Shown piece after piece: positions 2,267 to 62,241 of a stretch of 64,000 nucleotides of DNA. Under the pieces are notes generated by a model. That model did no database searches. It saw nothing but the letters and a program-made list of their open reading frames with translations, and had not been told where the DNA came from. The stretch lies in the IMG/VR virus record IMGVR_UViG_3300034782_000062, positions 32,001 to 96,000 of that record; one strand, given 5' to 3'. Numbering within the stretch: the first letter of the stretch is position 1; each line of letters opens with the position of its first letter. The stretch is from a virus. Made by a program: the position numbers and the translations under genes.

Positions 2267-2851
2267 TTAGTTCATGAACTCCCGAGGCCGCTCCCTCGGG
2301 AGCAGCGTTTTCGCCTGTGCCGCTGTCCTCGGCCAGACGCGTTGGCCATCTCTATACGTGCGAATATGTTTCCCTCGCGGTCCTCCGCGAAAGATTTTTC
2401 TCGTTTTTCCAGTCTGTGATCCAATTCTAGCAAAATCTTGAGCAGATCTCAGAGGATAGCCGCCAGGGTGGTATTTGCTTCCTGGCTGAGGGTAGAGCAC
2501 CCTCTCTCCGACGACCTTGACGACGTAGCGATCTGAGCGGACATTTTCCTCCAGCTCGTCGTCGCCGAGATTCTCTTCAATCTCTCGTTCGTCCTCTTTT
2601 CTCGTGTAGAGGTAGAAGACGAACCAGGCCAAACCGCCCAACAGCAGGCCCTTCGCCCAGATCGGCGTCTGAGACATCGCATCGCCCAGAGGAGGCTGCG
2701 GCGTTTGAGCTTGCTGCTGTCGACGACGGTAATACAGCCCGAGTGCGATCGCGCCGACGCCCACCGCCAAGGCAACATCCCCAGGACGAACTTTCCAGGT
2801 CTCTTCCGATGGATTGATGAGCGTCAGGACTTCGACTGGATTTTCTCTCAT
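2267..2851 (-). CDS. Two-TM membrane protein
   Basis: Two hydrophobic helices, each followed by basic residues; ENP/INP motifs. Confidence 0.7.
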   Translation of the reverse strand: MRENPVEVLTLINPSEETWKVRPGDVALAVGVGAIALGLYYRRRQQQAQTPQPPLGDAMSQTPIWAKGLLLGGLAWFVFYLYTRKEDEREIEENLGDDELEENVRSDRYVVKVVGERVLYPQPGSKYHPGGYPLRSAQDFARIGSQTGKTRKIFRGGPRGKHIRTYRDGQRVWPRTAAQAKTLLPRERPREFMN

Positions 2852-2860
2852 CGTCGCCCC

Positions 2861-3694
2861 CTACACCACGACCGCCCCAGTCGATATCCAAGTTTCAGCC
2901 GGCACTCCTTGGAATGCGCTGACCCAAGAGTTGTAGTTTGCCCCTGATCCCCATGTCTCTTCCATAACCGATTCGCAGGGCTGCCCGATGGCTGAGCGCG
3001 AAACAGGGCACTCGCGTGCTCCTGGATTTGCAGAAACGTGACCGGGGGCAGTATGCCCACCGTGCTCAATACCCCAGAGCACGCCTGGTGTCTGGGCCAT
3101 CTCATCTCGCACCTGAGCAATGAAGCTTCGCTCTCCTCCATCTTCGTAGGAAGCGCTGCTCCATCCGGACTCGCCTGGATTACTCGCAGAGGAGCAACCA
3201 GCCCAGCCAATCCAGCCGCCTGCTGCCATTCGAGGCCCAACCTCGCGAGCAAACGTTCGATGAGACATCCACGTCGGGAGCTGATCGTCTCCGACACGAA
3301 TTCCAGAGTGGCCAGGGCGCATGTACTGTGTCGTCGTCCCGTGGCCCACCATGATGAGATTCTTGATTCTGCGATAACGCCTCACCGCATCGAGAACATC
3401 TTGCGCGTTTCGAGCTGGATAGAGAGCCGCTCCAATGTTCGCCGCGATTCGCTCGCCAACGTGTCGGAACTCGCCAGCACCATCTCCCTCGGCGACGTAG
3501 ATGACAACGTTGTCTCCCGTCGTTACGACAGCGGTGTAGATGACACCACCGATGAGAATGGCCACGCTCAGGCCACCGGCCGCGAGCAGCAGCGGCCTTT
3601 CTTTAAGGTGATCAATGAAGTCACGCGCGACACTGAAGAATCGAGGATTCTCGTTCCACTCGTACTCAACGATGTCGGCGTCGTACTGCATCAA
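2861..3694 (-). CDS. Membrane-anchored candidate clan-CD (caspase-like / DUF4347-like) cysteine peptidase
   Basis: N-terminal TM; LIMVGHG and IGWAGCSS resemble the His-Gly and Gly-Cys dyad strands of the caspase-hemoglobinase fold. Confidence 0.45.
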   Translation of the reverse strand: MMQYDADIVEYEWNENPRFFSVARDFIDHLKERPLLLAAGGLSVAILIGGVIYTAVVTTGDNVVIYVAEGDGAGEFRHVGERIAANIGAALYPARNAQDVLDAVRRYRRIKNLIMVGHGTTTQYMRPGHSGIRVGDDQLPTWMSHRTFAREVGPRMAAGGWIGWAGCSSASNPGESGWSSASYEDGGERSFIAQVRDEMAQTPGVLWGIEHGGHTAPGHVSANPGARECPVSRSAIGQPCESVMEETWGSGANYNSWVSAFQGVPAETWISTGAVVV

Positions 3695-6231: not shown

Positions 6232-6914
6232 CGTTGCTGCTCCAAGATCTCCTCGATAATGTTCGAGTCGATGAGCCATCCCTCAACACGAAAGCCAACG
6301 GTGCCAATGGGAACTGGCGAGACTGCCCTGTTGATATAGTAGGCTTCCACCTCTCGCCCTGACTTCGCATAAAGAGAGAACTCCACCTCACGGGAACCAA
6401 CGCGATCACCCAAAAACGGGAAGTAAGCTCTGTCTTCAGCAGGCAAAAGCGGCTGCACCCTTGTCGAACGAATTTCGACTGGCACTACCTCACCTATCTC
6501 GAAGAAGCATTGAACCGACCCCTCGATGACCCCGGGGGGGAGCAGCTCACCAAGACCGAAAGCAGCTTTGGCGAAGAAGTACATGTTGTCGATGACGAGG
6601 GTCCGATCGGAAGGCACATTGAAGCTGAGTATGGGGAATCGCCGCCCCAGAGGGACTGTGCTGAACTCGACCTCGTCGGTGAGATCGACGAAGACTATCT
6701 GCTCGTCTTGAAGACGGGAATAGAAGTCCTTAACCAGCCTGACACGACGGGCATCTTTTTTGCCGCCGCTGATAGGCTTCGCCCTGAGCATATCCGGGTC
6801 CAGTCCATAGACCTTCTCCCGAACCTGGGGATTGATCACACCGGGTTCTTTGTGGTCGCGCCTGACCAATGGCCCGATCGGAATACCGTGGCGCTTTTTT
6901 CGTCCGCCACCCAT
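6228..6914 (-). CDS. Beta-rich protein, candidate jelly-roll minor capsid/penton protein
   Basis: Alternating hydrophobic strands ending GFRVEGWL; basic N-terminal arm ending VINP; adjacent to two other candidates. Confidence 0.45.
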   Translation of the reverse strand: MGGGRKKRHGIPIGPLVRRDHKEPGVINPQVREKVYGLDPDMLRAKPISGGKKDARRVRLVKDFYSRLQDEQIVFVDLTDEVEFSTVPLGRRFPILSFNVPSDRTLVIDNMYFFAKAAFGLGELLPPGVIEGSVQCFFEIGEVVPVEIRSTRVQPLLPAEDRAYFPFLGDRVGSREVEFSLYAKSGREVEAYYINRAVSPVPIGTVGFRVEGWLIDSNIIEEILEQQR

Positions 6915-8528: not shown

Positions 8529-8716
8529 GTCTTTTCTCCTCCCGTTTTGATTCAGCCCTTGCGGGCCTAGCGGGTGGTCGTCCCGCTGTCTTACCTGCTA
8601 CCCCTCTCCGCGGGGCCAAACACTCCGAAATAATGTTCAAGGCCTCGGGGAAGGCGGTCGGAGAAACCGCTTTTCGGGGTGCACGTCCCTATCCCCGAGA
8701 CCATGATGACGATCAG

Positions 8717-12232: not shown

Positions 12233-12325
12233 ACTAAGCCTGTCCCTTGTTCAGGTCTGAGAGGGATTGGGTTTTCTCTCGGCACCATCCTATGGGGCTG
12301 GGACAGGCTTACCGAGACGATTACA

Positions 12326-12355
12326 AGACTACGTTCGTCCTGAGGACGATGTCAA
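12326..12355 (-). promoter_or_regulatory. Sigma70-type promoter for the giant basic protein/capsid operon, with a palindrome in its spacer
   Basis: Minus strand TTGACA-TCGTCCTCAGGACGAACG-TAGTCT (18-nt spacer); second palindrome at 12366-12378. Confidence 0.6.
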
Positions 12356-12455
12356 GCGTATTTAACGTCTTCAAGACGTTTTTTCTTTAAAAAGAACCCT
12401 TAAGTAGGCAGGAACTCAGAAAATCGGAGAGACGAGCGCGAGCTTTTATCTGACT

Positions 12456-12665
12456 CTATCCCTGACGGCAGCGCTGCAGGCGCAACTGTGCTGCTCGATG
12501 CTCCAGCGTCGCCAAATGCAACTCATGTTCTCGCAAACGCAATTCTTCTTCGTATGATGCACAAAGCGAAACAGCTCTAGCGGGCGGCACGGGGGCATGT
12601 GTTCTCACACGAGTAGGTGCTGCTGCACCTAGCCCACCCTGCACCCTCTGATACTCGTAAGACAT
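12456..12665 (-). CDS. Small protein with YEY-GLG leader
   Basis: MSYEYQRVQGGLGAAA; GGAGAG RBS. Confidence 0.6.
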   Translation of the reverse strand: MSYEYQRVQGGLGAAAPTRVRTHAPVPPARAVSLCASYEEELRLREHELHLATLEHRAAQLRLQRCRQG

Positions 12666-12675
12666 GCTCTCCTCC

Positions 12676-13179
12676 TTAATCGATTGCGCCTTCTTCACGC
12701 AAACGTTCTTTCTGCTTGTAGCCGATGTAGAGTCCGACAGCGAAAGGAACGAGACCAGAGCCTCCAACGTAACGACCGCTGCCCTGACTCACACTTTCGA
12801 GGCCAGCAGAGACGATGGTCAGCACGATGCCCGCGCCAATACCAGCAAGACCGCCGTAGATGGCACCCTTCTTCGCCGCCTCCTTCTTGTATCCCTTCGC
12901 TCCGGTAATCGCTGCACCAGCAGCTCCGAGCGCGAACGGCATGGCAATTCCAATCACGACGATCCCAAGCAGGAGAAGAGCGAGTGCCCCGACGCCAGCT
13001 CCGATGGCAAGAGCCCTCGTTCCGTTGTCTGCAGGAGCTGGAACGCCCGTATCAACAAAAGCCTGATCTTCGAGCTGCAAACCAGGAACGGTAACTGCCA
13101 CCGGCTCAGCGCCGTTGCCATTTGTACCAAGTCCGAATCCCATCATCGACTCGTAAGTCGCTGGAGTGTACTCGTACAT
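12676..13179 (-). CDS. Multi-TM membrane protein with YEY leader
   Basis: MYEYTPATYESMMGFGLGTNG; 3-4 hydrophobic helices. Confidence 0.8.
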   Translation of the reverse strand: MYEYTPATYESMMGFGLGTNGNGAEPVAVTVPGLQLEDQAFVDTGVPAPADNGTRALAIGAGVGALALLLLGIVVIGIAMPFALGAAGAAITGAKGYKKEAAKKGAIYGGLAGIGAGIVLTIVSAGLESVSQGSGRYVGGSGLVPFAVGLYIGYKQKERLREEGAID

Positions 13180-13188
13180 CGTCCCCTC

Positions 13189-13548
13189 CTACGCCCTTGC
13201 GCGAGAAGCAAGACGCTGCGCTCGATCCAGCTCGTAGCTTGCCCTCAGCTCTCGCTCCCATTGCTTCTGTTGCCAAATCCCGACGACCGCACCTGCACCA
13301 GATGGAATAGCAAACGTTCGCAACCAGAACAGGACCCCACTCATCGGAACAATCGCCTGAGCGGCTTGTGCCAGCGCAACAGCAGCGACGCCGCCCTCAA
13401 TGACGGCGTACTTGCGGTCCATTGGAGAAACGATGGCAGCAGCAGCTCCGCCGAGCGCGAACTGCGCCAGGACAAGTCCGAAGTTCCCCATCGAGGTCTC
13501 CGGTTGCCCCATCCCAACAGCTTCTTCCCAATATCCCAGCATCGCCAA
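13189..13548 (-). CDS. Multi-TM membrane protein
   Basis: MAMLGYWEEAVGMG leader; three hydrophobic segments. Confidence 0.75.
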   Translation of the reverse strand: MAMLGYWEEAVGMGQPETSMGNFGLVLAQFALGGAAAAIVSPMDRKYAVIEGGVAAVALAQAAQAIVPMSGVLFWLRTFAIPSGAGAVVGIWQQKQWERELRASYELDRAQRLASRARA

Positions 13549-13554
13549 TCTCCT

Positions 13555-13896
13555 TTATGACTTTTGAACGACGTCAAACACCTTGTGGGTGCCGCCCTTG
13601 AAGTTCTCCACCTGTTTTATGTCGCGCAGGTGCCCAATGATCCTAACGCGGTATGCCTTATGAGGACTTGTGGCGTAAGAGAATCGATAGCTTTGTGTCG
13701 AGCCCACGTAACAGTTGATATCGAGACGACCTACAACACGAGGCATAATCCCCGGATACCACTCGTCCAGCTCGGCCTGAAGCTCCCGGTTTGGAGCACG
13801 CTGCCCGCACGGTGCTACACGAAGAGTGACACTCCCACCAGACTGACCACCAGCAGCGCCACCCATCGAGCTTTTTGTTGTGTACTCGTAGCTCAT
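13555..13896 (-). CDS. Small soluble protein with YEY leader
   Basis: MSYEYTTKSSMGG, start right after the upstream stop. Confidence 0.7.
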   Translation of the reverse strand: MSYEYTTKSSMGGAAGGQSGGSVTLRVAPCGQRAPNRELQAELDEWYPGIMPRVVGRLDINCYVGSTQSYRFSYATSPHKAYRVRIIGHLRDIKQVENFKGGTHKVFDVVQKS

Positions 13897-14652: not shown

Positions 14653-15057
14653 CTACTCCATCTCCGACTCGAAGGTACCGAATCTTTCGTCCTGAGGACG
14701 ATTATCAAGTCTGGTTGTCAGCCAGAGAAGTGCCGTCGGAACGACGATCGCTAACCCAACGCACAGCCATGGATTGATCGGTGTCTGGGTGCTCACCTCG
14801 GAAACAATTTCACCCATTGCGAGAGAGCCTGTTCCAACATACTTCGCCCTTGGTGGAAGACTGTGGCCCGAGGTATCTGGGGCTTCGCCGAGAGCGCTTC
14901 CGAGCGCTGGCGAAAAAGGCGGCGGCGGGACTTCCTCACCGTACTTGGGACGATCAGGCTCTGGAGCCTGATAGTATTTGTACTTCCCGGTCGTCCAATC
15001 CCAAACGCTGTACATTCCATTGGTCGCGATCGCGCCGTAATTAACTCCGGGCCTCAC
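14653..15057 (-). CDS. C-terminally anchored membrane protein (YSVWDW..GKYKYY motif)
   Basis: C-terminal TM; aromatic N-terminal motif. Confidence 0.7.
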   Translation of the reverse strand: MRPGVNYGAIATNGMYSVWDWTTGKYKYYQAPEPDRPKYGEEVPPPPFSPALGSALGEAPDTSGHSLPPRAKYVGTGSLAMGEIVSEVSTQTPINPWLCVGLAIVVPTALLWLTTRLDNRPQDERFGTFESEME

Positions 15058-15350: not shown

Positions 15351-15623
15351 CTATCGCTCTCTCTTCCTTAGGATAAAATACATCCCCAGGATGGCTGTCG
15401 CTGGGATTGCGATCATCCCCATCGGAACGAGCAGCCCGTACATTGCTTGCGACTGAGCCGCCGCTGCACGTCGTCGCTGCTCCTCAATCTGCTGCTGCTG
15501 GTCCTGAACTTCCGTCGTTCCGTTCTGTTGAAACGCACCAAAGGCCATACCGGCAAAAATCAACGAACCACCGATGAGGATCGGATAGGCAGCAGCAGCA
15601 ATTGGTCCGAAGTTTCGCTCCAT
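15351..15623 (-). CDS. Two-TM small membrane protein, same architecture as 15054-15350
   Basis: Start MERNF by TGATG coupling; TM - Q-rich coil - TM. Confidence 0.7.
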   Translation of the reverse strand: MERNFGPIAAAAYPILIGGSLIFAGMAFGAFQQNGTTEVQDQQQQIEEQRRRAAAAQSQAMYGLLVPMGMIAIPATAILGMYFILRKRER

Positions 15624-16297: not shown

Positions 16298-16950
16298 CAG
16301 CCCATCTCCTCTGAGAACAGCATGCGCTCTTCTCGCTTCCGGTCGAAGTAGCGCTTGCCGAGATAAGCCGCCGTCCCCAGGATGCCTACAGCAACCCAAA
16401 CCTTTGGATCGGACAGAATCTTTCCGATGCCAGTGATCGGCGTCGTCGTGATCCTCGCTGTCGGTGTCGATCCTTCAGGAGGAAGCTCTTTCGTCGGAGA
16501 CTGAACAGGCGGCTGCGTAGTCGTAGGAGGTTCCACCGTCGGAAGACCGGGAATCTCGGGCGGCAAAGGGAGCTGTGCCTCCTCCTCACGAATCTGAGCG
16601 GCCTCCGGAGTCTCGGGATCGGCCCGCGGTGTTCCACTCGGGCAGCAAAAGCAAAAACCGGGGTTACCAGAAGCAGTCTCACAGCGCTTCGGCTCATCTC
16701 CGGTGAGAAACGTCTGCATATTCTGAACGCAGCCGTAGAGGTTGGCGACGTTGAGGTCTGGAGGATAAACTTCACCAGCGTTCTGTGGATCCTCCATGAA
16801 GCAAACTTCGTCCGGAGGATACTGTCTTCCTACGTCATCCGTCGTACACATACACTGAGGACGACCAAAGAGCGGGGCCAAATCCCAACTGCTCATCACA
16901 GACCAGCCGAGAGCACCGAGACCGCCAGGTCTTCTGTTGTACTCGTACAT
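16297..16950 (-). CDS. YEY-leader Cys-rich CCP protein, Pro/Thr stalk, C-terminal TM
   Basis: MYEYNRRPGGLGALGW; CFCCPS. Confidence 0.8.
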   Translation of the reverse strand: MYEYNRRPGGLGALGWSVMSSWDLAPLFGRPQCMCTTDDVGRQYPPDEVCFMEDPQNAGEVYPPDLNVANLYGCVQNMQTFLTGDEPKRCETASGNPGFCFCCPSGTPRADPETPEAAQIREEEAQLPLPPEIPGLPTVEPPTTTQPPVQSPTKELPPEGSTPTARITTTPITGIGKILSDPKVWVAVGILGTAAYLGKRYFDRKREERMLFSEEMG

Positions 16951-25378: not shown

Positions 25379-25870
25379 TTAATCCTTCATCTTGGAGACG
25401 AGCCACACGCCGCCGATGACAACCCCTGTCACTCCGACTCCAACGACAGCCCAGACCCACATGGGAGTAGGCCGACTCCCTCCAAATGTTCCACCGACGC
25501 GGGCTTGAGCCTCGCGAGCGAACGCAGCCGCTTGTTCACGGCTGATCTCTTCAGCAAGTTCCCGCTCCTGTGCGGAATACTCACTCGCGATGCCTCTACG
25601 AGCCTCGTTGATAGCATCACGCTCAGCGTTCGCTCTTTCATCGAAATACTGTTGCCTTGCCATGTCGTCGAGCATCGACGACATTCCGGATTCGCGCCCC
25701 TCAGCGTAGGCACCCTGCTGGTAACGAATCTGGTCGATGGTGTTGATCGCACCAAAGATCGCACCGACCGTACTTCCAACAGCGCCAGCGGCTGCACTGG
25801 CGTAGTCTCCGGCCGTCGTTCCCATGCCGACATCGCCCCCATCAGGGGCACCTACGAAGACGAAGCTCAT
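25379..25870 (-). CDS. Coiled-coil membrane protein
   Basis: GDVGMGTT leader, amphipathic/hydrophobic helix, coil, C-terminal TM. Confidence 0.75.
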   Translation of the reverse strand: MSFVFVGAPDGGDVGMGTTAGDYASAAAGAVGSTVGAIFGAINTIDQIRYQQGAYAEGRESGMSSMLDDMARQQYFDERANAERDAINEARRGIASEYSAQERELAEEISREQAAAFAREAQARVGGTFGGSRPTPMWVWAVVGVGVTGVVIGGVWLVSKMKD

Positions 25871-36203: not shown

Positions 36204-36247
36204 GGAAACAACAGCCGGCAATGTATCAAGCCGGCAGGAGGGACAAC

Positions 36248-37394: not shown

Positions 37395-37425
37395 AATCAT
37401 CCCCAGGACGAAGCGAACGGGACGC

Positions 37426-38432: not shown

Positions 38433-38798
38433 ATGTCTGAGCAAACCGAAGCACAGGGCAAGCCCATCGCCGCCACCTACGAGGGAATGCTCCAACTCGC
38501 CCTCGCTGGACGACGTGGGAGCTTAATGAAGGCTGCGCCGCTCCCCAAGCCCGAGGAGTGCACCGAAGAGGACATCCCTGTTCTTTGCAAGAACATCGAG
38601 TCACTGAACACTTTTATCGGCGAGCTGATCGACCTCGTCGGCGAGAAGGAGCGCAAGCTCAACCTCGCCTTGGAGGCCCACGCCATTCGCACCGAGGGGC
38701 TCGACGACATGCTCGAAACGCTCGACTCGATGCGCGCCCAGATCATCAGCGTGCGCGACGAGAGCGGCGAGCTACTCGAAGAGATGGACGCAGACTGA
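38433..38798 (+). CDS. Hypothetical coiled-coil protein
   Basis: RBS and ATG; 121 aa. Confidence 0.75.
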   Translation: MSEQTEAQGKPIAATYEGMLQLALAGRRGSLMKAAPLPKPEECTEEDIPVLCKNIESLNTFIGELIDLVGEKERKLNLALEAHAIRTEGLDDMLETLDSMRAQIISVRDESGELLEEMDAD

Positions 38799-38816
38799 CC
38801 ATCCCCAGGACGAATA

Positions 38817-38908
38817 TTCCAATCTGTTCCGGCGACATTCCAAACCATTCCCGGCAGGGTGTGAGAAGCCCTGGCGGGGACCACTAAACAACATGCGTCC
38901 CCAGGACG
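38817..38908 (+). promoter_or_regulatory. Regulatory cassette B, same architecture as A
   Basis: TTCC at 38817/38827/38838/38848; hairpin 38848-38880; CGTCCCCAGGACG at 38896. Confidence 0.6.
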
Positions 38909-39581: not shown

Positions 39582-39658
39582 GTGACTTTCTCTCGCCGCT
39601 GGCCTTGGAGCTGGCAGCGAGGGACCAGCGGCGTCCCCAGGACGCGAGGAGGGATAAA

Positions 39659-40036
39659 ATGCTTTTTCCAAGAAGACGACGAGTCGTGACGGACATCAAG
39701 TCCGTCTCTCTGGAGGCTGGCGCCAAGCAACTCGCTCGCAAGCTCACCGAGATGACGTGGTGCGGCTGTAATGGGTTTCGTCTTGGGGATTATCTCTTCC
39801 TCAATGACTCGACGAGCCCGGACGGAGCCCAGGAGTACGCTGTCGTTCACGAGCCGAGCATGCTTCAGTGCGAGAGCATCACGTTTAGTTGGTGCAGCCG
39901 CGCCAAAGCACTCGAATACATCCTCAAGACGATTCGCGGCGAGTTCAAGCCGTGGCGCGAGCCCACCCTGCCCAAGCCTGGCCAGCTCATCATCCAGACC
40001 CAGGACGAACACGGGACCTGCGTTCACTGCGCATAG
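39659..40036 (+). CDS. Conserved mobile-element hypothetical protein (GFRLGDYLFLNDSTSPDGAQEYAVV)
   Basis: Palindrome and RBS precede the ATG at 39659. Confidence 0.7.
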   Translation: MLFPRRRRVVTDIKSVSLEAGAKQLARKLTEMTWCGCNGFRLGDYLFLNDSTSPDGAQEYAVVHEPSMLQCESITFSWCSRAKALEYILKTIRGEFKPWREPTLPKPGQLIIQTQDEHGTCVHCA

Positions 40037-40363: not shown

Positions 40364-40392
40364 TCGTCCCCAGGACGAAGAAAGGAGATGAT

Positions 40393-40647: not shown

Positions 40648-40759
40648 CCTTTAACACCTTCTCTGTTGCAGCAGCTTTCGCGTGCAACAGGGACCAGTTT
40701 TTTTGTCAGAAGTCAGCAACTATGTTCGTCCTGTACAATGGACGAAGAAAGGAGCAGCC

Positions 40760-41233
40760 ATGCTTGCAGCATTGGTCGCAGAAGAAATCAAGCGTATGGA
40801 GCACGAGGACCAGTGCCCATGCCTCCCTTGCTCGATCAACTCGCTCCTACGTGACGTCGGTCGCTGGAAGCACATGCACGGGGAGTGCGACTGCCCGGTC
40901 TGTGAGCGCGGAATCGAGGCGATCACCAAGCACGGTAACGAGCTTGAGCGCATGAAGGCCGAGTACGAAAAGCGTCTTGAAGACGCAGACACAGACGACA
41001 TCGTCATCATCACACCTGAGCGGCACGCGCAGGCCGAAGAAGCTCGAAAGCTCATCCCCGTCATGGAAGCACAGATGGCGATGCTCGTCGCCACAATCGC
41101 TGAGCTTCTCGAAGACTTCCACCTCACTCTGAGAGCAGCCCACGCGGCTTTCGACGCCATCGCTGGCGAGCGGCAAGAGCCCGAGGCTGTTGTCGTTCGA
41201 CTTCAGCCTCGCCACGACTTCAGCATCAACTAG
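40760..41233 (+). CDS. Cys/His-rich protein with coiled coil
   Basis: GAAAGGAGCAGCC-ATG; CPCLPC...HMHGECDCPVC. Confidence 0.7.
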   Translation: MLAALVAEEIKRMEHEDQCPCLPCSINSLLRDVGRWKHMHGECDCPVCERGIEAITKHGNELERMKAEYEKRLEDADTDDIVIITPERHAQAEEARKLIPVMEAQMAMLVATIAELLEDFHLTLRAAHAAFDAIAGERQEPEAVVVRLQPRHDFSIN

Positions 41234-41509
41234 CTACCAATAGACAAACAAAAAATCCTCAAGACGGTTAGCTTTCGCGCCGCTTGAGGACCATGGTTCT
41301 CGACGCTGGAGGCGTCGGTATGCCGAGTTATCACGAATGAAGGCCAGGGTGGTAACGCCCCCATGTCACAGACGGGAGAAAGGCATGAAAAGGCCGACCG
41401 AGAAGGGAAGGCGTGGATGAAAGCCATCGAACCGGTGTAGATGGTGAGTAAGGTACGGCTTCGAGAATCATGTTTTTAGCGTCTACAGGACGCAGAGAGG
41501 AGGGATACC

Positions 41510-41938: not shown

Positions 41939-42047
41939 TAATTCATCCCCAGGACTGAGTAATACGTTTTCTCTCGTTGGTCAGCTTTCGCGCAGCGAGG
42001 GACCATCGCGTCGCAGAATCTTTCGCGTCGCAGAGAGGAGGGATACC

Positions 42048-42743: not shown

Positions 42744-42934
42744 TGGCAACACAGGACAGATGGAACAAGTGGGGCCAGCATTGGCTTGCCACGCTGGAGG
42801 AGATGGAAGAGAACGCCGAGTCACCCGACGAGGAGCTGACCACCTTCGAGCGCAACCTCAAAGAGCAGTTGCAAACTATGGTCGTCCGTCCCCAGGACGA
42901 GGAAGGAAAGGACCATGACACCGACCGAGATTGA
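42743..42934 (+). CDS. Small hypothetical protein
   Basis: TGATG coupling. Confidence 0.55.
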   Translation: MATQDRWNKWGQHWLATLEEMEENAESPDEELTTFERNLKEQLQTMVVRPQDEEGKDHDTDRD

Positions 42935-43229: not shown

Positions 43230-43259
43230 AAATCCCCAGGACGAAGAAAGGAGCTGACA

Positions 43260-43598: not shown

Positions 43599-43664
43599 TC
43601 CCCAAGACGAACATACATCCTCGGCGTGGTCAGCTTCCGCGCACGCCGAGGACCGAGGTACGAA

Positions 43665-43958: not shown

Positions 43959-43990
43959 AATCCGTCCCAAGGACGGGGAAAGGAGCAGCC

Positions 43991-44803: not shown

Positions 44804-44890
44804 CCTGTCATCCCACCATCATCTCTGTCCCCGGCTGATACCCGAGGACAGGGACCAAAATTTCGTCCCCAGGACGAGTAAGGAGGGACC

Positions 44891-46897: not shown

Positions 46898-47953
46898 ATG
46901 GGAGGTCAAGCGTTCAAGGGTCCAAGGCTCAACGGCTTCTTCCTCGACCCCGACGAGATCGTTCTGGTCGGAGGCAACGGCCCAAACGACGTCCCCAAGA
47001 CGGCTGAACTTGCACACCTGTACGACAAGCGCGTCCACGACAAGCCTGACGAGGGCATGGTCCGCAACATGATGGTCTACGGCGTCATCGAGGCCGTGAA
47101 GGTCCAGAAGATCGTCAGCGACGACGGAGAGAACCGCGCCTACGTCATCGACGGCCGTGGTCGAGTCATCGCAGCTCGCGAGGCGAACGTGCGTCTCCGC
47201 AGGGAGGGCAAGGAGCCGATCCTGGTTCCGATCGTCCTCAAGACCGGTGACCCGTCCAAGCTCTTCGGCATCCTCATCTCGGCGAACGAGAACCGTCGAG
47301 ACGACACCCCCATCGCCAAGGCTGAGAAGATCGCTCAGTTCATGGATATGGGGCGCGACGAGGAGGCGGCGGCGAACGCCTACGGTATCACCGTCGCCAA
47401 CGTGCGGCAGCTCCTCAAGCTGCTGGACCTCGCCCCGAAGGTGCAGACCATGATCAAGAAGGGCACCCTCTCGGCGTCGGCTGCCACTCAGCTCGTCAAG
47501 CTCCCACATGCGGAGCAGGTCACGAAGGCCGAGGAGGTCATCGCGAGCGGCGTCAAGCCGACGGCTCGGAATATCAGCCGCTCTACCGGAAACCGCCCGG
47601 TCACTCCATCGAAGCGCGTCGTGCAGAAGCTCGTCGCCCTCGACAAGAAGCCCGAAATCGCGGAGAAGTACGACTCCTTCTGGGGCGCCCTCCAGTTCAT
47701 GCTGGGCCAGGTAACCCTGGAGGACGTCGGCCTCGCCGAGGTCGTCGCGGAGCTGAAGGCCAAGAAGAAGAAGGCCAAGAAGGGCAACGCGAAGGGCTCG
47801 AAGAAGGGCAACTCCAAGCAGCAAACGTTGCCGCTCGACGAGAAGGGCAAGAAGTCCCCGGCCAAGACCACCTCCAAGACCAAGACCCCGCCGAAGAAGG
47901 GTCCGACCATCGCGAAGAAGAAGGGATCCGCGAAGAAGGACGCCGCCGCCTAG
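46898..47953 (+). CDS. parB: ParB/Spo0J-family DNA-binding protein with HTH and Lys-rich tail
   Basis: GVIEAVKV...YVIDGRGRVIAA...ENRRDD...HTH AAANAYGITVANVRQLL; AGGAGG RBS. Confidence 0.85.
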   Translation: MGGQAFKGPRLNGFFLDPDEIVLVGGNGPNDVPKTAELAHLYDKRVHDKPDEGMVRNMMVYGVIEAVKVQKIVSDDGENRAYVIDGRGRVIAAREANVRLRREGKEPILVPIVLKTGDPSKLFGILISANENRRDDTPIAKAEKIAQFMDMGRDEEAAANAYGITVANVRQLLKLLDLAPKVQTMIKKGTLSASAATQLVKLPHAEQVTKAEEVIASGVKPTARNISRSTGNRPVTPSKRVVQKLVALDKKPEIAEKYDSFWGALQFMLGQVTLEDVGLAEVVAELKAKKKKAKKGNAKGSKKGNSKQQTLPLDEKGKKSPAKTTSKTKTPPKKGPTIAKKKGSAKKDAAA

Positions 47954-47993
47954 TCCGTTCTGGACGACATCACCATCTTCAAGACGAAAGACA

Positions 47994-48057
47994 GACCAGG
48001 GTTTTCCAGATCATCTGGAGGACGGTGACCGGGGTTCGACTCCCCGGCCTGGTCCCA
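47994..48057 (+). ncRNA. tRNA-like element 3 (variant topology)
   Basis: GACCAGG/CCTGGTC stem, 10-bp hairpin with TCA loop, GGTGA linker, CCGGGG-TTCGACT-CCCCGG arm, 3' CCA. Confidence 0.65.
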
Positions 48058-48068
48058 AGGAGGTCTCA

Positions 48069-48389: not shown

Positions 48390-48427
48390 GCATATAACTT
48401 CGTCCCCAGGACGAGAAAGGAGCAGCC

Positions 48428-48880: not shown

Positions 48881-49484
48881 CATCCCAGCACCGCACGGAT
48901 ACGCCTTCGTGCTCAACAGCAACACCAGAAAGGGATCGCGCTTTCACCTGGCCGACGCGAGCGGTCGTCCCAAGTGCGGAACCAAGGTAGACGTCAGCGC
49001 CTTGGAGCGCGAATGGGAGATACCCGTCAGCTACGACCCCTGCAAAAGGTGTTTCCCGAAAGGAATCAATCCAATGAACGACGCCAATCATATGACTCCA
49101 GAAGAGTTCGACCGGGTCATGCTTCTCTCGTCCAACGGCGAGATTGAGTGTGATGGCATCGTCATCATCCCAACGGACAGGGTCGATCAGTCGGGCTACC
49201 GAATCATGGATTTTGTCGTCACCGTGACGCCGGATCGCAAGCCTGTGGGCCGCATCAGCGAACTCGGCATGAACGCGCACGACGTCTTCGAGCTGACCGA
49301 CATGCGCGGCACTCGGACTCGGTCCATCGGCGACGAGCCGGTACGGCTCCCCGAGTGGAAGTGCGACTGCCTTCAGCGCAGCGGCTTCCTCTATATCACT
49401 CCATCCTGGGGACGGATCAGGGTCAGCCACGACACGGCGACGGTCCACATCCGTCTCATCAGCAACGACGAGGCCCAGAAATGA
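48870..49484 (+). CDS. Hypothetical protein
   Basis: H...CG...C..C in the N-terminal part; coupled to neighbours. Confidence 0.6.
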   Translation: MKSNIPAPHGYAFVLNSNTRKGSRFHLADASGRPKCGTKVDVSALEREWEIPVSYDPCKRCFPKGINPMNDANHMTPEEFDRVMLLSSNGEIECDGIVIIPTDRVDQSGYRIMDFVVTVTPDRKPVGRISELGMNAHDVFELTDMRGTRTRSIGDEPVRLPEWKCDCLQRSGFLYITPSWGRIRVSHDTATVHIRLISNDEAQK

Positions 49485-50311: not shown

Positions 50312-50409
50312 CACAGGCGTTCATCCCCAGGACGCCCGTGGGATCGTGACCACCACTAATAAGTCCTGGTCACTCTGAGAAAGTGGCCAGGGCTCCAAGG
50401 AGGCAACAA

Positions 50410-52146
50410 ATGTCCAGAACCATCGTTTTCAATTTTGGAGGCCGTGCACCAACAAAAAACGCACAGCTCGTTCATGACAACATCTACCACGGGCACAACT
50501 ACTACAATAAGCTCATCGAGCTAGAACGTTGTTACCGCAAGGCAATTCGCGCAGCCCAAGCCGAGTTCCCGGAGATCGCAAAAGCTCAGGCACTCTTCGA
50601 TAACGCTGAAGAGGCTGTTGACGGATTGATCGCGCTAAAAAAACTAGCCAAGTCAAGCGACTCAAGTATTACTCCACCAACGCCCGATGAAATGAAAAAG
50701 GCTGTTGCCGAAAAGAAGGCGGCGGCTGCAGCTCTCAAAGACGCCAAGGCCCCTCATGCTGATTCATTGCAAACCAAATACAAGGCAGCCAAGGATGAGC
50801 TAACGGCATCTATAAAAAAGGCTCGATCCGAGACCGAAACTTTCTGGGGAACCTATCTGTGCATCGAGCGAGCGTTTCAGCAAGCCAAGAAAGCAAAGCC
50901 TATTTTTAAGCCTGGCAAAAAGCGCCCCCCATGGACCGAACGGCCAGCGTGGCGAAAATGGACAGGCCATGGTGTTGTTGGCATGCAAATTCAGAATGGG
51001 ATGCCAGCAGAGAACCTGTTCAAACCTAACACGAGATGTTACATAGATCCCCTTCCAGCCAATGCGTACAACACGAACATTCCCCGTGGCCAACGCCGCA
51101 AGATGCAATACACAACCATCCATTTGCGCGTAGGATCTGAAAACAGAAAACCCATATGGGCTGACATCCCCGTTTACCTGCACCGGGGCTTTCCTGCTGG
51201 CGCGATTGTCAAATGGGTATGTGTTATCCGAACCCCATGGCATCAACATCAAGCCTACAAATGGCAGGTACAAATCACTCTTGAGGTCCCCGACGCTTTT
51301 CCAAAAACCAACAAAAAAGCCGTTGCCATTAATTTAGGTTGGCGCAAACTAGCCGATGGATCCCTTCGAGCAGCCACCTGGGTGGATACTGACGGTCAAT
51401 CGGGCGAGATTATTCTAAGCGACAAGGAATTCAGAGATCGTATTGAAAAATACAACAACCTACGATCGATTCGAGACAAACTGATCGATGAAATCCGGCC
51501 TAAGCTCATCATGTCCGGCATCAACTGCGCCAAATGGAAAAGCCCCGACTCTTTTCAAAAACTTTCTCGTCGCGAAGACTTAACCGACGAACAGAGCGCA
51601 ATTTTGAAACCCTGGGCCTACAAAGATAGGCATCTCAATTGGTATGCCCGTGGTGTAAAAAATGGCGCCCTAAACCACCGGCGCGATGTCTATCGAAAGT
51701 TCGCTCTTTACATAGCGACAAACTACGACATCATCATCGCCGAAAAATACGACATGAAGAACATTGTCGAAGACGAAGATCGGAAAAGAGGTCCAGCGGG
51801 TCAGCGGGTTGAAGCTGCCCCATCCATTGCCAGGCAGATCATCGGCAGCACCGCGACACGGCTCGGGTGTCACATTATCGAGGGCCAAACCACATATGCA
51901 ACCCAAGAGTGCTTTTTTTGCGGTTGCACAGAGCCATGGGATGCCTCTGGTAACATCATGCACACCTGCCAGGAATGTGGTGAACATTGGGACCAGGACA
52001 TCAACAATGCCAAGAACATGCTCGCGAGAGCCGCTGATGCAATCAACTCCCTGGACCCGCTCGCACCTAAAAAGTCAAAGAATTACGGATGGAAATCGGT
52101 ACAAGAAAAGAAAAAACAAGGAGATAACGAAGACCACACTGATTAA
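50410..52146 (+). CDS. cas12m: Type V-M-like CRISPR effector (Cas12m-like, TnpB-derived), RuvC-I Asp replaced by Asn
   Basis: 578 aa; HNYYNKLIEL helical/coiled-coil N-terminus, FWGT, VYLHR, AINLGWR (RuvC-I), IIAEK (II), CFFC/CQEC zinc finger, DQDINNA (III); CRISPR array 63 bp downstream. Confidence 0.8.
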   Translation: MSRTIVFNFGGRAPTKNAQLVHDNIYHGHNYYNKLIELERCYRKAIRAAQAEFPEIAKAQALFDNAEEAVDGLIALKKLAKSSDSSITPPTPDEMKKAVAEKKAAAAALKDAKAPHADSLQTKYKAAKDELTASIKKARSETETFWGTYLCIERAFQQAKKAKPIFKPGKKRPPWTERPAWRKWTGHGVVGMQIQNGMPAENLFKPNTRCYIDPLPANAYNTNIPRGQRRKMQYTTIHLRVGSENRKPIWADIPVYLHRGFPAGAIVKWVCVIRTPWHQHQAYKWQVQITLEVPDAFPKTNKKAVAINLGWRKLADGSLRAATWVDTDGQSGEIILSDKEFRDRIEKYNNLRSIRDKLIDEIRPKLIMSGINCAKWKSPDSFQKLSRREDLTDEQSAILKPWAYKDRHLNWYARGVKNGALNHRRDVYRKFALYIATNYDIIIAEKYDMKNIVEDEDRKRGPAGQRVEAAPSIARQIIGSTATRLGCHIIEGQTTYATQECFFCGCTEPWDASGNIMHTCQECGEHWDQDINNAKNMLARAADAINSLDPLAPKKSKNYGWKSVQEKKKQGDNEDHTD

Positions 52147-52209: not shown

Positions 52210-52922
52210 GTCACAAAGGCTATCTCTACAGCCTATGAGTAGAGACATGTAGACGCTTCGCAAACATTCTGTCCTCAAAGGGGTCACAAAGGCTATCTCT
52301 ACAGCCTATGAGTAGAGACAAGTTAGAATTCTTGATCAAAATGCTTCCATTGTTAAGGTCACAAAGGCTATCTCTACAGCCTATGAGTAGAGACGGATAA
52401 ACAGCATCGTAAACTCCACCCTCTGACAGGTCACAAAGGCTATCTCTACAGCCTATGAGTAGAGACAGGACGAGAGGCCGCTGAGGAGCGAGATGTGCGG
52501 GCACGAGTCACAAAGGCTATCTCTACAGCCTATGAGTAGAGACCGGAGCAAGCCCAGGATGTACTCGTGCTCGAAGGACGAAGTCACAAAGGCCATCTCT
52601 ACGGCCTATGAGTAGAGACATCGGTTGTCTTCCTCTGTAAACGATATTTCCCGTCCTGTCATAAAGGCCATCTCTACGGCCTATGAGTAGAGACACTGTA
52701 GAGTAGGGCAGTCCGGTTCCGTTAGCTACGTCCGTCACAAAGGCTATCTCTACAGCCTATGAGTAGAGACTTGCTCCATTCTGAACCGAACCAAACTTGC
52801 GCCTTGGTTGTCATAAAGGCCATCTCTACGGCCTATGAGTAGAGACAGCCCAACTTCAGCACTGGTTCGAGCCGCCGATAGGTGTGTCATAAAGGCCATC
52901 TCTACGGCCTATAAGTAGAGAC
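52210..52922 (+). CRISPR. CRISPR array, 10 repeats of 37 bp and 9 spacers of 35-40 bp
   Basis: GTCAYAAAGGCYATCTCTACRGCCTATGAGTAGAGAC starting at 52210, 52283, 52358, 52430, 52507, 52583, 52658, 52734, 52810, 52886; the last copy carries an extra G->A, so the leader is at the cas end. Confidence 0.97.
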
Positions 52923-52973: not shown

Positions 52974-53639
52974 ATGACCAATGAATTCGAGCGAATACTC
53001 CCCCCCGAGGTTGCCGCCGCCGTCCAAACCGGCAGGGCGTCCCTCATGGGCGGACTCATCCAGAGAATCAAGGATGGCAAGGAACAACTTTCGGCAGAGG
53101 ACCAATCAGAGATACTCGCATTGGTCCAAGACCTCATCAACGAGGGCCAGTCCGACAAGTCCCTCATTGAGGAGTCCGAGGCGCAACTCAAGAACCTCAC
53201 CGAAAACGTCAAGGGCACCCTCAAACTGGTAACGGAGCTGACCGAGCACATGCACCAGCTCAGGCTCTCACCTGACAAGCGCCATCTTCAGGACGACTCG
53301 ATCGAGAAATCCTGCAGGCGCGACCTCGAAGAGCACCACGACAAGATTCTTCGAGCCAAGCTCGTCATGGGCTACCGTGGCAACGACTCCGTCGAGGTCA
53401 CCTGCGACCCCCCGGCGCTCGTCCGGGTGACGCAGAAAGACGACGGCCAGTTCATCAACTGGACGACTCACGATTTCGCGGATCCGAACTGGGACGTCGA
53501 GCTTGTAAAGCCACATCCTGCTCTTGAAGGCGTCCGCTCTCTGTGGGTCGATGGCATCAGCCGATCGAGGACGGGAGAGGTTGAGCACCCCGACTGGGAG
53601 ATCGTTTCCAAGGGCTCGCTCAACGCAGATGTTCCTTGA
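52974..53639 (+). CDS. Hypothetical protein
   Basis: GGAGGT RBS; 221 aa. Confidence 0.75.
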   Translation: MTNEFERILPPEVAAAVQTGRASLMGGLIQRIKDGKEQLSAEDQSEILALVQDLINEGQSDKSLIEESEAQLKNLTENVKGTLKLVTELTEHMHQLRLSPDKRHLQDDSIEKSCRRDLEEHHDKILRAKLVMGYRGNDSVEVTCDPPALVRVTQKDDGQFINWTTHDFADPNWDVELVKPHPALEGVRSLWVDGISRSRTGEVEHPDWEIVSKGSLNADVP

Positions 53640-54098: not shown

Positions 54099-55385
54099 AT
54101 GAGGACGAGCGACAGCGCTCTTGAACAGTACGAAGAATGTCCAAGGCAATACGACCTGGAGCGCAACCAGAAAAAGCGTGGGAAGCCAACCGCTCCCATC
54201 CGGCTCGGCAGAGTCGTTCACCGAACAATTCAGAAGCTCCTCAAGAAGTACAAGGAAGCGGGAGAGGCCAAGCCCTTCGACGCTTCACTCGCCTCCGACA
54301 TCTACACCGAGGAATGGGGGAAGGAGCTGGGTCTGAGCGGCAAAGAGCTTTTTACCGACGGACTGCAGATCGTCGCCGACTGGGTTGAGAAGTGGAGCAT
54401 CCCTCTCGACCCCCACTCCATCCTCGGCATCGAGGAGCCCTTCAAGTTCACCATTGAGTATCGTCCCCAGGATGATGAGTATGATGACGAGGAGGAAGAG
54501 GAAGAGACGGCGATCGAGCCCAGCAACCTCATGCCCGTGGAGGTTGTCGGCTACCTAGACCTTGTCCTCGGACACGATCTAGTAGACGAGGAGACGGGCG
54601 AAGTCGAGACTCTCATCGAAGTCATCGATTGGAAGACGACCAAGGCGTTTCTCACGAGCCGGGACGCACAAGAGTCGCTCCAACTCTCCATCTACGATCT
54701 CGCCGCTCGCGAGAAGTGGCCTGACGCCAGGGCCTACCGCGCCGCACTCAATCTGCTGCGTGACGGCACTCACCTTCAGGTTCGCCACAGCACCGCCGAG
54801 CGCCGCGACACCGAACGATACATCCTGGCGACGGCGGCTCAGATACGCGACGAGCGAGAGTGGGCTCCACGGCTCAACTCCAACTGCACCTACTGTCACC
54901 ACCGCCACGACTGCCCCGCCTACCAAAAAGCCCTCAAGGGCGACAGCCACACCGTCGCCGAGGACATGAATGACTTTGACAAGCTCATCGAGGAGCGTGC
55001 TGCGCTTGCAATCCGAAAGAAGATCGTCGGCAAGCGGCTCGACGAAATCGACGACGTCATCAAGGCACACCTCAAATCATCCAAACACCCGCTGGAGATC
55101 GGCGGCTGGTTCTTCAAGCTCTCATCTGTCGAGCGAAAGAACTATCCAGCCGACGTCGTCATCCCACTGCTCGCTCACAAGTTCGACATAAGCCCCGCCG
55201 AGCTGCTCGCCGACCTGACGACTGTCTCCACAAAGAAGCTCAAGGAGCTGATGAAGACCAAAGCCGAAGAGCTTGGGCGCGAGAAGGTCAGCCTCGTACA
55301 AGCCACCCTTGAAAGCAAAGCCGAACGCAACTACTCCTCTCGGCTGTACAACCGAAAGGAGAAGAAGCCCAAACCCAAGAAATAG
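54099..55385 (+). CDS. PD-(D/E)XK exonuclease (RecB/AddB/Cas4-like, four-Cys staple)
   Basis: CPRQY, G..VH, IEEPF, GYLDLV, IDWKT, QLSIY, CTYC....DCP. Confidence 0.9.
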   Translation: MRTSDSALEQYEECPRQYDLERNQKKRGKPTAPIRLGRVVHRTIQKLLKKYKEAGEAKPFDASLASDIYTEEWGKELGLSGKELFTDGLQIVADWVEKWSIPLDPHSILGIEEPFKFTIEYRPQDDEYDDEEEEEETAIEPSNLMPVEVVGYLDLVLGHDLVDEETGEVETLIEVIDWKTTKAFLTSRDAQESLQLSIYDLAAREKWPDARAYRAALNLLRDGTHLQVRHSTAERRDTERYILATAAQIRDEREWAPRLNSNCTYCHHRHDCPAYQKALKGDSHTVAEDMNDFDKLIEERAALAIRKKIVGKRLDEIDDVIKAHLKSSKHPLEIGGWFFKLSSVERKNYPADVVIPLLAHKFDISPAELLADLTTVSTKKLKELMKTKAEELGREKVSLVQATLESKAERNYSSRLYNRKEKKPKPKK

Positions 55386-60750: not shown

Positions 60751-61167
60751 ATGAGCGCAAAATCAACAACGAAGGTCAAGGCGACCTTCAAGGGAGAGGT
60801 GTTCACCTTTCTGACGACCAGCTTTGACATCGACGCGGCGATCGAGCTTTGCAAGGACAAGGAGCCCGAGGAGGCCGGCATCGAGAGCGTCTTCTCGATG
60901 TTCGCCCTAATCGCCATCGACAAGAAGTACGCCGAGAGCGACGAGGTCGATCTTACAAAGCCCATCATCGTCGCGAAGATAACAACACTGAAAGACACCT
61001 CTGAAGAGAAGCCGATGATGATCCCTATTGACGGATGGCACCGGCTCTGGAAGGCACATAAGAAGGGTGTGACCACCCTGCCCGTTTTTGTCCTGGAGGG
61101 ATGGGAAACTGATCTCATCATGAAGTCGCCTAACCGTAAGCGACGGCGGAGGAAGAAGGCCGGATGA
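60751..61167 (+). CDS. Stand-alone ParB-N/Srx-like domain protein
   Basis: VDLTKPIIV...IDGWHRLWKA...G...LP. Confidence 0.7.
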   Translation: MSAKSTTKVKATFKGEVFTFLTTSFDIDAAIELCKDKEPEEAGIESVFSMFALIAIDKKYAESDEVDLTKPIIVAKITTLKDTSEEKPMMIPIDGWHRLWKAHKKGVTTLPVFVLEGWETDLIMKSPNRKRRRRKKAG

Positions 61168-61778
61168 GCGATCAAGAAAAAGACCCACTCCATGATTTCA
61201 CCCACCGGAGCGGCCTGAGAGTTCGCGTTCCCAAGTGCTTCAGCCTCTTCAGGCATCCTCCGGACGAACAGGTCATTCAAATTGTAGATGGCGATCGGCG
61301 CGTCAGTTTCAACATCGCCCTGCTCGACGACATCGTCGCCTACATGAAGGCCCTGGCCTGGTATGAAGGCGACGCAATGACACCAGCAAGCCCCGACTGG
61401 CCAGCGTTCGAGTCACTACTCAGAAGCAAGAAAGGTATCGACCTCAAGCCCGAGTGGGAAAACAAGAAAGCAAGGGCACAAGGGGCTTATACATACAACT
61501 GCTCCTGCTCTGAGCGCCCCGAAGGTTGGACTTGGGACCGCAAAACGGATCGCTGGCCCAAGGCAATGAACATCCTGAGGACCCACTTTCCACGCTACGA
61601 CAGGCAAGACACCGCAGCTTACTGGGTCCAGGTCGGCGCCGACTGCGACTGCCTTGTTGCTTTCAACGTTGGCGGCGAGCTGGACAAGGGATATCGCAGA
61701 CTGATCTCGGACCAGATTCGATGGTCCGAACGAAGGGATGGAGGAAGGTCGGATGACAGACGAACAGAAGGCGGCTGA
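61164..61778 (+). CDS. Hypothetical protein with DUF2695-like C-terminus
   Basis: GADCDCLVAFN resembles the DUF2695 CDC motif. Confidence 0.55.
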   Translation: MSDQEKDPLHDFTHRSGLRVRVPKCFSLFRHPPDEQVIQIVDGDRRVSFNIALLDDIVAYMKALAWYEGDAMTPASPDWPAFESLLRSKKGIDLKPEWENKKARAQGAYTYNCSCSERPEGWTWDRKTDRWPKAMNILRTHFPRYDRQDTAAYWVQVGADCDCLVAFNVGGELDKGYRRLISDQIRWSERRDGGRSDDRRTEGG

Positions 61779-62241
61779 GGAGACCGTCGAGCAACAAGAG
61801 GCGCCCCCGGCTGTGGAGGTCGGAAACGGCGAAAAAATCACCTATGACCAGCTCGAAGAGTTCTTCATCGAAGAAGGTCAGTGGCTCGAAGGACAGATTG
61901 CCGAGGAGCAGCAGACACACCAATCCTGCCCTCTGTGCTCGGGTCTACCCAACGTCTTCAGGATGCTGATGCAGGCTGCACGCGCCGCACTGGAGAACGC
62001 CGACACCATGATGGAGAAGGGCTACAGCGAGCAGCGGGTCATCGGGCAGCTCCTCCGTGAGAAGGTCTGGTACGAGACGACCAAGGGAGTCATCAATGAG
62101 ATGTTCCAGATCGGTCACAAGCCCGGCGCCATAATGAGCGCCCACCCCGAGCTGGCTATCAGCAAGAGCAAGCGCCGTCAGATCAAGAGCGGCAAGCACA
62201 AGCGCAAGATGGCACGGGAGGCGCGAAGAAAGAACCGCTGA
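61753..62241 (+). CDS. Hypothetical protein, acidic N-terminus and basic C-terminus
   Basis: CPLC; GGAAGG RBS. Confidence 0.7.
   Translation: MTDEQKAAEETVEQQEAPPAVEVGNGEKITYDQLEEFFIEEGQWLEGQIAEEQQTHQSCPLCSGLPNVFRMLMQAARAALENADTMMEKGYSEQRVIGQLLREKVWYETTKGVINEMFQIGHKPGAIMSAHPELAISKSKRRQIKSGKHKRKMAREARRKNR

Follow-up and report, generated by a model that had tools for sequence, protein, structure and literature searches.

The stretch of viral DNA analyzed here (hereafter the window, 64,000 nucleotides) comprises bases 32001-96000 of the 182,770-bp IMG/VR record IMGVR_UViG_3300034782_000062, which is rated 95% complete and represents a little-known phage family with very few PHROG or Pfam matches. 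A short repeat, CRTCYYCARGAYG, recurs throughout this genome, and sequence comparison makes it probable (roughly 0.7) that the repeat belongs to a duplex-DNA operator for one phage-encoded, two-fold symmetric DNA-binding protein. The element is a palindrome of duplex DNA, it is placed in promoters, and it has co-evolved with the phage lineage. Coordinates below refer to the window unless they are given as genome coordinates.

A 13-bp palindrome with a central C:G pair

The strict form of the repeat, CRTCYYCARGAYG, occurs as 37 exact copies in the window, against 0.16 on average and no more than 2 in any of 100 dinucleotide-preserving shuffles, and as 64 exact copies in the whole virus record, where the backwards control yields 0. 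The repeat announced in a preliminary description of this DNA is hence real, and its core is CCA or TCA, as claimed there. The copy list given in that description was largely accurate: 30 of its 32 exact starts hold, two (41480, CGTCTACAGGACG, and 43963, CGTCCCAAGGACG) are one-off variants, and all six of its near-matches (7805, 32450, 41254, 41944, 43231, and 43598) are near-matches. It was also incomplete, having overlooked exact copies at 6704, 16372, 25388, 30111, 39919, 40973, and 49402.

The true unit is broader than CRTCYYCARGAYG, and consists of a 13-bp palindrome with a central C:G pair, C-R-T-C-n-Y-S-R-n-G-A-Y-G. Its loose form, CRTC-N5-GAYG, has 186 copies genome-wide and 77 in the window, where the backwards control gives 10 and 4, respectively. 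The excess is confined to this spacing, as the CRTC and GAYG arms occur in the genome 29 times at N4 and 58 times at N6. The form CGTC-N5-GACG is present 73 times in the genome, versus 6.8 expected under a first-order Markov model. Of the 186 loose sites, 163 have C or G at position 7; across the sites, positions 6 and 8 favor T..A or C..G, positions 1-4 mirror positions 10-13, and the flanks favor a T before (T0) and an A after (A14) the site. A central pair with mirrored neighbors is a property of duplex DNA, since a one-base loop cannot form. Gene calls came from a simple scoring of codons (229 genes, 86% coding), a heuristic that missed at least one small gene; by these calls, 29 of the 64 strict copies do not lie fully within genes, though intergenic DNA makes up 13.8% of the genome.

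Motif type follows phage lineage

Relatives of this phage were located through its 337-aa early protein (36248-37261), which has homologues on large metagenomic contigs and identified six syntenic loci (L020-L025), and through the ParB-like protein discussed below, which identified a seventh (L026). No close relative was detected by megablast against 50,697 phage records, and related-locus searches of IMG/VR gave no match, whether started from the 337-aa protein or from its alignment. The arms CGTCC..GGACG are kept in L020, L021, and L022 (58-66% identity) in a slot just ahead of the ribosome-binding site (RBS), hereafter the pre-RBS slot. The motif takes the form CRTCG..CGAYG in L023, CGTCT..AGACG with a free center in L024, and CGTC-n-TSA-n-GACG, with unpaired inner bases, in L026. 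The sense-strand center is CCA in this phage, TGG in L020, TGA in L021, and TCA in L022, and it conforms to T-S-A in L022, L023, and L026, with C or G on the sense strand; the sequence that would form the triloop of an RNA hairpin is thus not conserved among relatives. A motif type that follows phage lineage in this manner argues for, and would favor, a phage-encoded partner.

The variability of the center also bears on the orientation of the repeat, which had been described as co-oriented with transcription throughout the right arm. This holds for the present genome, where 26 of 28 exact right-arm copies read YCA on the + strand, and does not extend to its relatives. Of the early-arm copies of this genome, 19 are co-oriented and 1 is anti-oriented, L020 shows the opposite orientation, and the centers of L021, L022, L023, and L026 are symmetric. 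Because centers flip or turn symmetric among relatives, co-orientation with transcription is a feature of this genome and not of the family.

Outside these loci, the motif followed by an RBS was not found as a repeat. The pattern matched 11 loci in IMG/VR, with one copy each and none repeated outside this contig, and these can be regarded as chance hits, since the full records hold only 1-2 copies. A search of 185,579 species genomes returned 12 single hits, with no enrichment and no prophage relative or host repeat.

Sites in left-arm promoters

Several copies lie within or beside promoters of the left arm. The copy CGTCCTCAGGACG (12336-12348, - strand) sits inside the spacer of the promoter TTGACA-18-TAGTCT, and a perfect palindrome, CGTCTTCAAGACG (12366-12378, + strand), lies approximately 53 bp upstream of the same promoter and is followed by a T run on the + strand. 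The copy at 14688-14700 (- strand) immediately follows TTGATA-at, 37 nt ahead of the next - strand start. A divergent left-arm promoter, TTGACA-17-TACTTT, harbors one copy in its spacer/-10 region (32105-32117, - strand) and a second at about +9 (32077-32089, + strand), with an equivalent of the latter in L020, L021, L022, and L023. Lastly, an imperfect copy, CATCCTCAAGACG (27502-27514, - strand), abuts a -35 element (TTGACA), with its center at approximately -44. As RNA this copy reaches -0.9 kcal/mol and cannot fold; as an operator it could be either repressing or activating.

At two of the left-arm promoters, the sites are conserved in four to six relatives. Downstream of the gene for a 909-aa protein, the arrangement atcggctaa...CATCC(Y)CAAGACG-c-TTGAC is found in this phage, L020, and L021, with both imperfect half-sites kept in all three, and in L023 the promoter-proximal half at the place equivalent to 27502 is CGATG, which is that genome's own type. 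The divergent promoter (TTGAC-17-TAnnnT) carries a spacer site in this phage, L022, and L024, and one between about +8 and +22 in this phage, L020, L021, L022, and L023. In each case the promoter half-sites match the type of their own genome: CGTCC here and in L020-22, CATCG/CGATG in L023, and CGTCT/AGACG in L024. This tracking of lineage by promoter half-sites has the signature of a site that evolves together with its binding protein, and, because a promoter spacer yields no RNA, lineage-matched spacer sites point to an operator co-evolving with a protein. The suggestion of a master operator, one of three roles put forward in the preliminary description, is thus supported by the placement of copies in promoter spacers, at about +9 and against a -35 element, by the conservation of these places in relatives, and by half-site types that track the genome-wide motif.

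Copies within genes

A large fraction of the sites lies in coding sequence, with 148 of the 186 loose sites fully in genes versus 37 +/- 5 in synonymous shuffles; more than 100 of the in-gene copies are weaker ones, in contrast to the near-perfect copies of the early-arm gaps. Strict in-gene copies number 18 in the co-oriented and 17 in the anti-oriented direction, against 2.1 and 1.3, respectively, expected from within-gene synonymous codon shuffles, and in-gene copies are hence under selection in either orientation. The peptides that they encode are unrelated, mostly with (V/I)-x-x-(T/M) in one frame, which rules out paralogous peptides or domains as their source. The antisense excess, furthermore, argues against a signal read on messenger RNA (mRNA), as such a signal would not persist on the antisense strand.

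These data are pertinent to the possibility of a selfish or non-regulatory repeat, which could be a REP/MITE-like palindrome spread by a transposase, or else a target of DNA modification or restriction. The high number of palindromic copies and the homogenized appearance of gap cassettes within the genome would fit a selfish repeat, and the phage encodes a fusion of ParB_N with a methyltransferase (genome 100911-102479, - strand; N6/N4 type) that would fit a modification site. Nevertheless, the in-gene sites are embedded in unrelated codons and have not been inserted there, which departs from the extragenic location of REP/RAYT-type elements, promoter positions are conserved across relatives, and no repeated motif-plus-RBS cassette is present in the 185,579 species genomes. 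Restriction targets are normally depleted in phages, whereas the motif is enriched 8- to 18-fold. A selfish repeat or a modification site is therefore a most improbable account of the palindrome.

The in-gene copies of the window include two perfect palindromes, both on the - strand (6704-6716 and 40973-40985). Copies antisense to their genes are seen on the + strand at 2776-2788 (opposite a - strand gene), 15381-15393, and 16372-16384, and on the - strand at 49402-49414 (opposite a + strand gene). Further - strand copies are located at the 3' end of gene 25379-25870 (25388-25400) and within the gene for the 909-aa protein (30111-30123), and further + strand copies at 39919-39931, 46990-47002 (92 nt into the ParB-like gene), 53283-53295, 54462-54474 (in a PD-(D/E)XK nuclease gene), and 61953-61965.

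Candidate binding proteins

Three open reading frames (ORFs) had been suggested to encode binders. The one at 46898-47953 (+ strand) is a genuine member of the ParB family, and as such a candidate only; those at 48069 and 60751 have neither a ParB nor any other Pfam match. The ParB-like protein (351 aa) features an HTH_ParB domain, a GxxRxxA arginine patch (GRGRVIA), and a Lys-rich tail. It matches PF17762 at E = 2.4e-11 as well as the structures of Spo0J, ParB, and Noc, its sequence match to the Noc structure 7ng0 being weak, and it is the sole DNA-binding match in the early arm after Pfam and PHROG scans of approximately 50 window proteins. Orthologues are encoded in the motif-bearing L023, L026, and L022 contig. 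Comparison of the ParB recognition helix with motif type revealed no clear correspondence, and the assignment of this protein as the binder is accordingly tentative, with the odds leaning against it. Other candidates are a 62-aa XRE protein (genome 15419-15607, - strand) and a 414-aa protein with several tandem helix-turn-helix (HTH) units (genome 18407-19651, - strand). A ParA-type partner was sought with family PF13614, the only ParA family searched, and no match was found in the 182,770-bp record.

A tyrosine integrase (genome 134349-135404, - strand) and a Gp3 protein resembling a recombination directionality factor (RDF; window 62668-64251) together identify the phage as temperate, and this makes a prophage-wide silencer plausible.

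The early right arm and the pre-RBS slot

The early right arm (window 33-50.4 kb) has its genes on the + strand and near-perfect copies of the palindrome in its intergenic gaps, all those listed here being on the + strand. In agreement with the earlier observation that copies lie shortly 5' of an RBS, seven exact copies end 14-22 nt ahead of a start codon: 38398-38410 (22 nt from the ATG at 38433), 38896-38908 (17 nt; 38926), 39632-39644 (14 nt; 39659), 40365-40377 (15 nt; 40393), 42887-42899 (15 nt; 42915), which overlaps the end of the upstream ORF, 44864-44876 (14 nt; 44891), and 48401-48413 (14 nt; 48428). The same slot is occupied by near-matches ahead of genes 41510 (CGTCTACAGGACG, 41480-41492), 43991 (CGTCCCAAGGACG, 43963-43975), and 43260 (AATCCCCAGGACG, 43231-43243), the last of which keeps most of the sequence and loses the hairpin (-0.4 kcal/mol), and, ahead of gene 40760, by a variant with the usual arms and an 8-nt center, CGTCC-TGTACAAT-GGACG (40727-40744).

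Additional copies are found in the long early leader, downstream of the promoter 32754-32781 (33076-33088), at the start of a small early ORF, where it reads RPQD in frame 0 (33551-33563), and at the 3' end of an AAA ATPase gene, a place at which orthologues have none (36001-36013). Two intergenic copies belong to longer palindromes, namely 36115-36127, which its flanks extend to 11 pairs, and 37304-37316, and a third, CATCCCCAGGACG (37398-37410), has A.C at positions 2/12 and is a poor hairpin. Two A.C variants lie directly 3' of the stop codon of 38433-38798 (38800-38812) and upstream of the Cas12-like gene (50322-50334). The latter had been described as preceding cas12m at its RBS, and in fact ends 75 nt upstream of the start, so that it is not adjacent to the RBS. 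Lastly, the copies at 36158-36170 and 37349-37361 constitute the anticodon-like arms of two modules resembling transfer RNA (tRNA), and the copy at 47974-47986 lies just past the ParB-like stop codon, upstream of a third such module.

The fixed placement of these copies a few bases ahead of the RBS, and following a strong hairpin able to terminate the preceding unit, is what could be expected if each were the promoter of a phage-specific transcription machine, such as the hairpin of an N4 virion RNA polymerase-type enzyme or the element of a phage sigma factor, with each early gene forming its own unit. A single sigma-70-like + strand promoter (32754-32781) is predicted for the 18-kb early arm, and a gene for a Sigma70_r4 protein adjoins the early genes in L020, both of which would also fit. 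Yet the site of relatives is fully symmetric, with C or G at its T-S-A center on the sense strand, and carries no directional information, and the asymmetric center of L020 points the opposite way. The site is also found within host-type promoters and, in both directions, in genes, and its distance to the RBS leaves hardly any space for a transcription start and a leader. The phage-specific promoter entertained in the preliminary description is thus very unlikely.

The observations that weigh against a duplex-DNA operator are of several kinds. Of 53 pre-RBS copies, 52 have a base pair at positions 2/12, mostly the unchanged consensus G..C, and a few variants in that slot have the same arms around 4- or 8-nt centers (40727-40744, and one in L021), which an RNA hairpin fits better than an operator of fixed spacing. 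Within each genome the asymmetric center is uniformly oriented in the early arm, which a symmetric dimer would not need, although this may reflect the spread of shared gap cassettes. The positions of in-gene sites are not conserved across six sets of orthologous core genes. Lastly, no protein could be linked to the site, L025 has a ParB orthologue and no evident motif, and genomes with the same motif differ in the recognition helix of their ParB.

The first of these observations, in particular, support the view that the motif is primarily an RNA hairpin, with a 5-bp stem and a triloop located 5' of the Shine-Dalgarno sequence, which could stabilize the 5' end of transcripts processed at upstream hairpin-NCCA or tRNA-like elements, serve as the site of a translational regulator, or act as a cleavage signal. 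The consensus RNA folds at -7.6 kcal/mol (z = -5.2), seven exact copies stand 14-22 nt ahead of start codons, and the motif doubles as the anticodon-like arm of the tRNA-like modules. Furthermore, the pre-RBS slot appears to hold hairpins regardless of sequence. A canonical site lies within 48 nt upstream of 56 of the 200 early-arm genes of the seven genomes, and 58 of the other 144 have a different hairpin (at least 5 pairs, -42 to -7), versus 29.6 +/- 5 (maximum 46) in shuffles. The orthologous gene for the 337-aa protein has a pre-RBS hairpin of unrelated sequence in all seven genomes, as exemplified by GCCGGC..GCCGGC here (36214-36235) and by GCGCCA-TGG-TGGCGC in L020.

Other evidence is at odds with RNA as the main level of action. 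Copies are present in promoter spacers or upstream of a -35 element, where no RNA arises, and strand specificity fails in genes, where anti-oriented copies are in 13-fold excess (17 vs 1.3). A hairpin leaves unaccounted for the strict N5 spacing and the palindromic T6/A8 with central S, and it is the sequence of the stem, not its pairing, that is conserved. In the strict CCCA-centered form of this genome, positions 2/12 are G..C in 16 copies, G..T in 6, A..C in 5, and A..T in 2, and are thus near-independent, with the A.C variants folding at only -0.4 to -1.8 kcal/mol. Among the copies outside the pre-RBS slot in the early arms of the seven genomes, A.C outnumbers G.T by 25 to 15, whereas an RNA stem on the sense strand should show the reverse. 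The loop, moreover, varies among relatives (CCA here vs TGG, TGA, and TCA). An RNA triloop signal, the third role considered in the preliminary description, is thereby unlikely to be the main function of the motif.

A duplex-DNA operator can be reconciled with the pre-RBS data if, as we read them, these early genes generally carry a hairpin ahead of the RBS. An operator that is palindromic suits such a slot at no extra cost, which would explain its fixed placement there, and the presence of unrelated hairpins in the same slot of other genes makes an added RNA role possible; that pre-RBS operator copies act also as RNA has somewhat less than an even chance.

A proposed silencing mechanism

In the proposed operator mechanism, a symmetric dimer or clamp would bind the palindrome and repress left-arm promoters by occupying their spacer and +9 region. 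The early operon would in turn be silenced either through a roadblock at each gap, in the manner of stoperators, or through the loading and sliding of a clamp, as in KorB, and silencing of this kind would keep most of the temperate phage quiet. As a secondary effect, the early-arm palindrome may also fold in mRNA just 5' of the Shine-Dalgarno sequence. A bolder version, which we judge rather unlikely, envisages the sites, at about one per kb, as loading or docking points for a phage cytidine triphosphate (CTP) clamp of the ParB/KorB type, or for another silencer, that would tag and coat the 183-kb genome and thus be the phage equivalent of Noc or KorB. The strongest copies would double as pre-RBS mRNA hairpins, and immunity or compatibility groups would be set by whether the half-site of a given relative has C, G, or T as its inner base.

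If the operator reading is correct, most of this 183-kb temperate phage is governed by one protein together with its site, a direct handle on phage regulation in that knowing the binder would reveal the circuit, and many-site silencing of the stoperator or KorB type extends to large phages. The related genomes would then offer a natural series of altered specificities (CGTCC, CGTCG, and CGTCT) for the joint change of regulator and site, and copies that coincide with the pre-RBS hairpin position would allow one to test whether a single sequence can work as DNA and as RNA alike.

Other elements of the window and its relatives

No tRNA was detected by ARAGORN. The three tRNA-like modules (36137-36203, 37327-37394, and 47994-48058), which ARAGORN missed, comprise a 7-bp acceptor stem, a YCA-centered hairpin, a T-arm (GGTTCGAnTCC), and an NCCA, NCCG, or NCAA end; their acceptor stems are fully compensatory between copies, and L021, L022, and L024 have counterparts of them flanking the orthologous gene. 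Early-arm gaps also contain GC-rich hairpins (for example 38350-38385, 40660-40700, 41990-42020, 43610-43650, and 44820-44855, and likewise in L020-L026), placed between the stop codon and the palindrome. Their stems are variable and compensating, and their conserved loops (GCTTTCGCG, or GGTCAGATTGCTCGC in L023 and L026) are followed by GGGRCCA; the absence of a U tract distinguishes these hairpins from classic terminators. A long conserved ribosome-binding region, AGGAGGGACA, precedes many genes in the window and in relatives, and is the top 10-mer in L024.

A second family of repeats, with GGTCAGTGA and TCACTGAGCA units, is clustered in the 1.2-kb early leader (32230-32430; about 11260-11530 in L024), and TTCACTRAGCATTT (37471-37484 and 37523-37536) directly follows two U-tract terminators. 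These repeats may be iterons or a second regulatory site. At the end of the early arm, the gene for the Cas12-like protein (50410-52146, 578 aa, TNB domain PF07282) precedes a CRISPR array (52210-52922) with 10 repeats of 37 nt (GTCACAAAGGCTATCTCTACAGCCTATGAGTAGAGAC); the palindrome was considered as a possible relative of this repeat, which is unrelated to it. The sole Rfam match, an int-alpA RNA (RF02996) at 8625-8699 (- strand; 40.3 bits vs a gathering score of 35.8), is likewise unrelated to the motif. In L025, which lacks the palindrome, the early arm carries an IS200/IS605-type pair (Y1 transposase and OrfB/TnpB, 12313-13810) adjoined by an AcrVA2-like protein.

Comparison with known systems

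Many-copy sites for DNA-binding proteins are known in several settings. Noc-binding sites and matS are short palindromes that occur by the dozens in genes and gaps, are read on the duplex by a dimer, and organize bacterial chromosomes without being located in promoter spacers. The sites of this phage are likewise short, scattered palindromes, but they occupy conserved promoter positions and cluster in the early operon.

A second parallel is provided by the repressors of Cluster A mycobacteriophages. The L5 gp71-type site is 13 bp long, is present in more than 20 copies in promoters and in the short gaps of lytic operons, and is thought to stop both initiation and elongation (PMC9283540). Similarly, the temperate phage studied here has many 13-bp copies in promoters and gene gaps. 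Related Cluster A phages differ in site type, which is what immunity groups would lead one to expect (PMC6550527). The L5-type sites, however, are asymmetric, bound by a monomer, and active in one orientation relative to transcription (PMC9283540), whereas the site described here is palindromic, with symmetric flanks, and its orientation is not conserved among relatives. Its copy number is also higher (64 strict and 186 loose sites), with more than 100 copies in genes kept by codon selection. No homologue of the L5 repressor was seen, and no search aimed at one was made.

The third parallel is KorB of plasmid RK2, whose operator, OB, has the core TTTAGCGGCTAAA (PMC11790492). As we read that report, the OB core resembles the phage site in being a 13-bp palindrome centered on a C:G pair. 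The OB sites number twelve in approximately 60 kb, with sequence and position conserved in a relative, and their distance to the promoters that they silence ranges from a few bp to over 1 kb; KorB acts together with clamp-locking partners (PMC13768133). As with KorB, the promoter sites of this phage keep their positions in relatives, even if its in-gene sites do not, and there is a gene for a ParB-family protein that combines an HTH with a CTP-binding arginine patch. On the other hand, site density is about five times higher by the strict count, many sites lie in genes, the record has no PF13614 match for a ParA/IncC-type partner, and no KorA- or TrbA-like clamp-locking partner is known here. 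By analogy with these systems, the palindrome and its putative binder are best described as a variant of many-site silencing that is a member of neither the L5 nor the KorB family.

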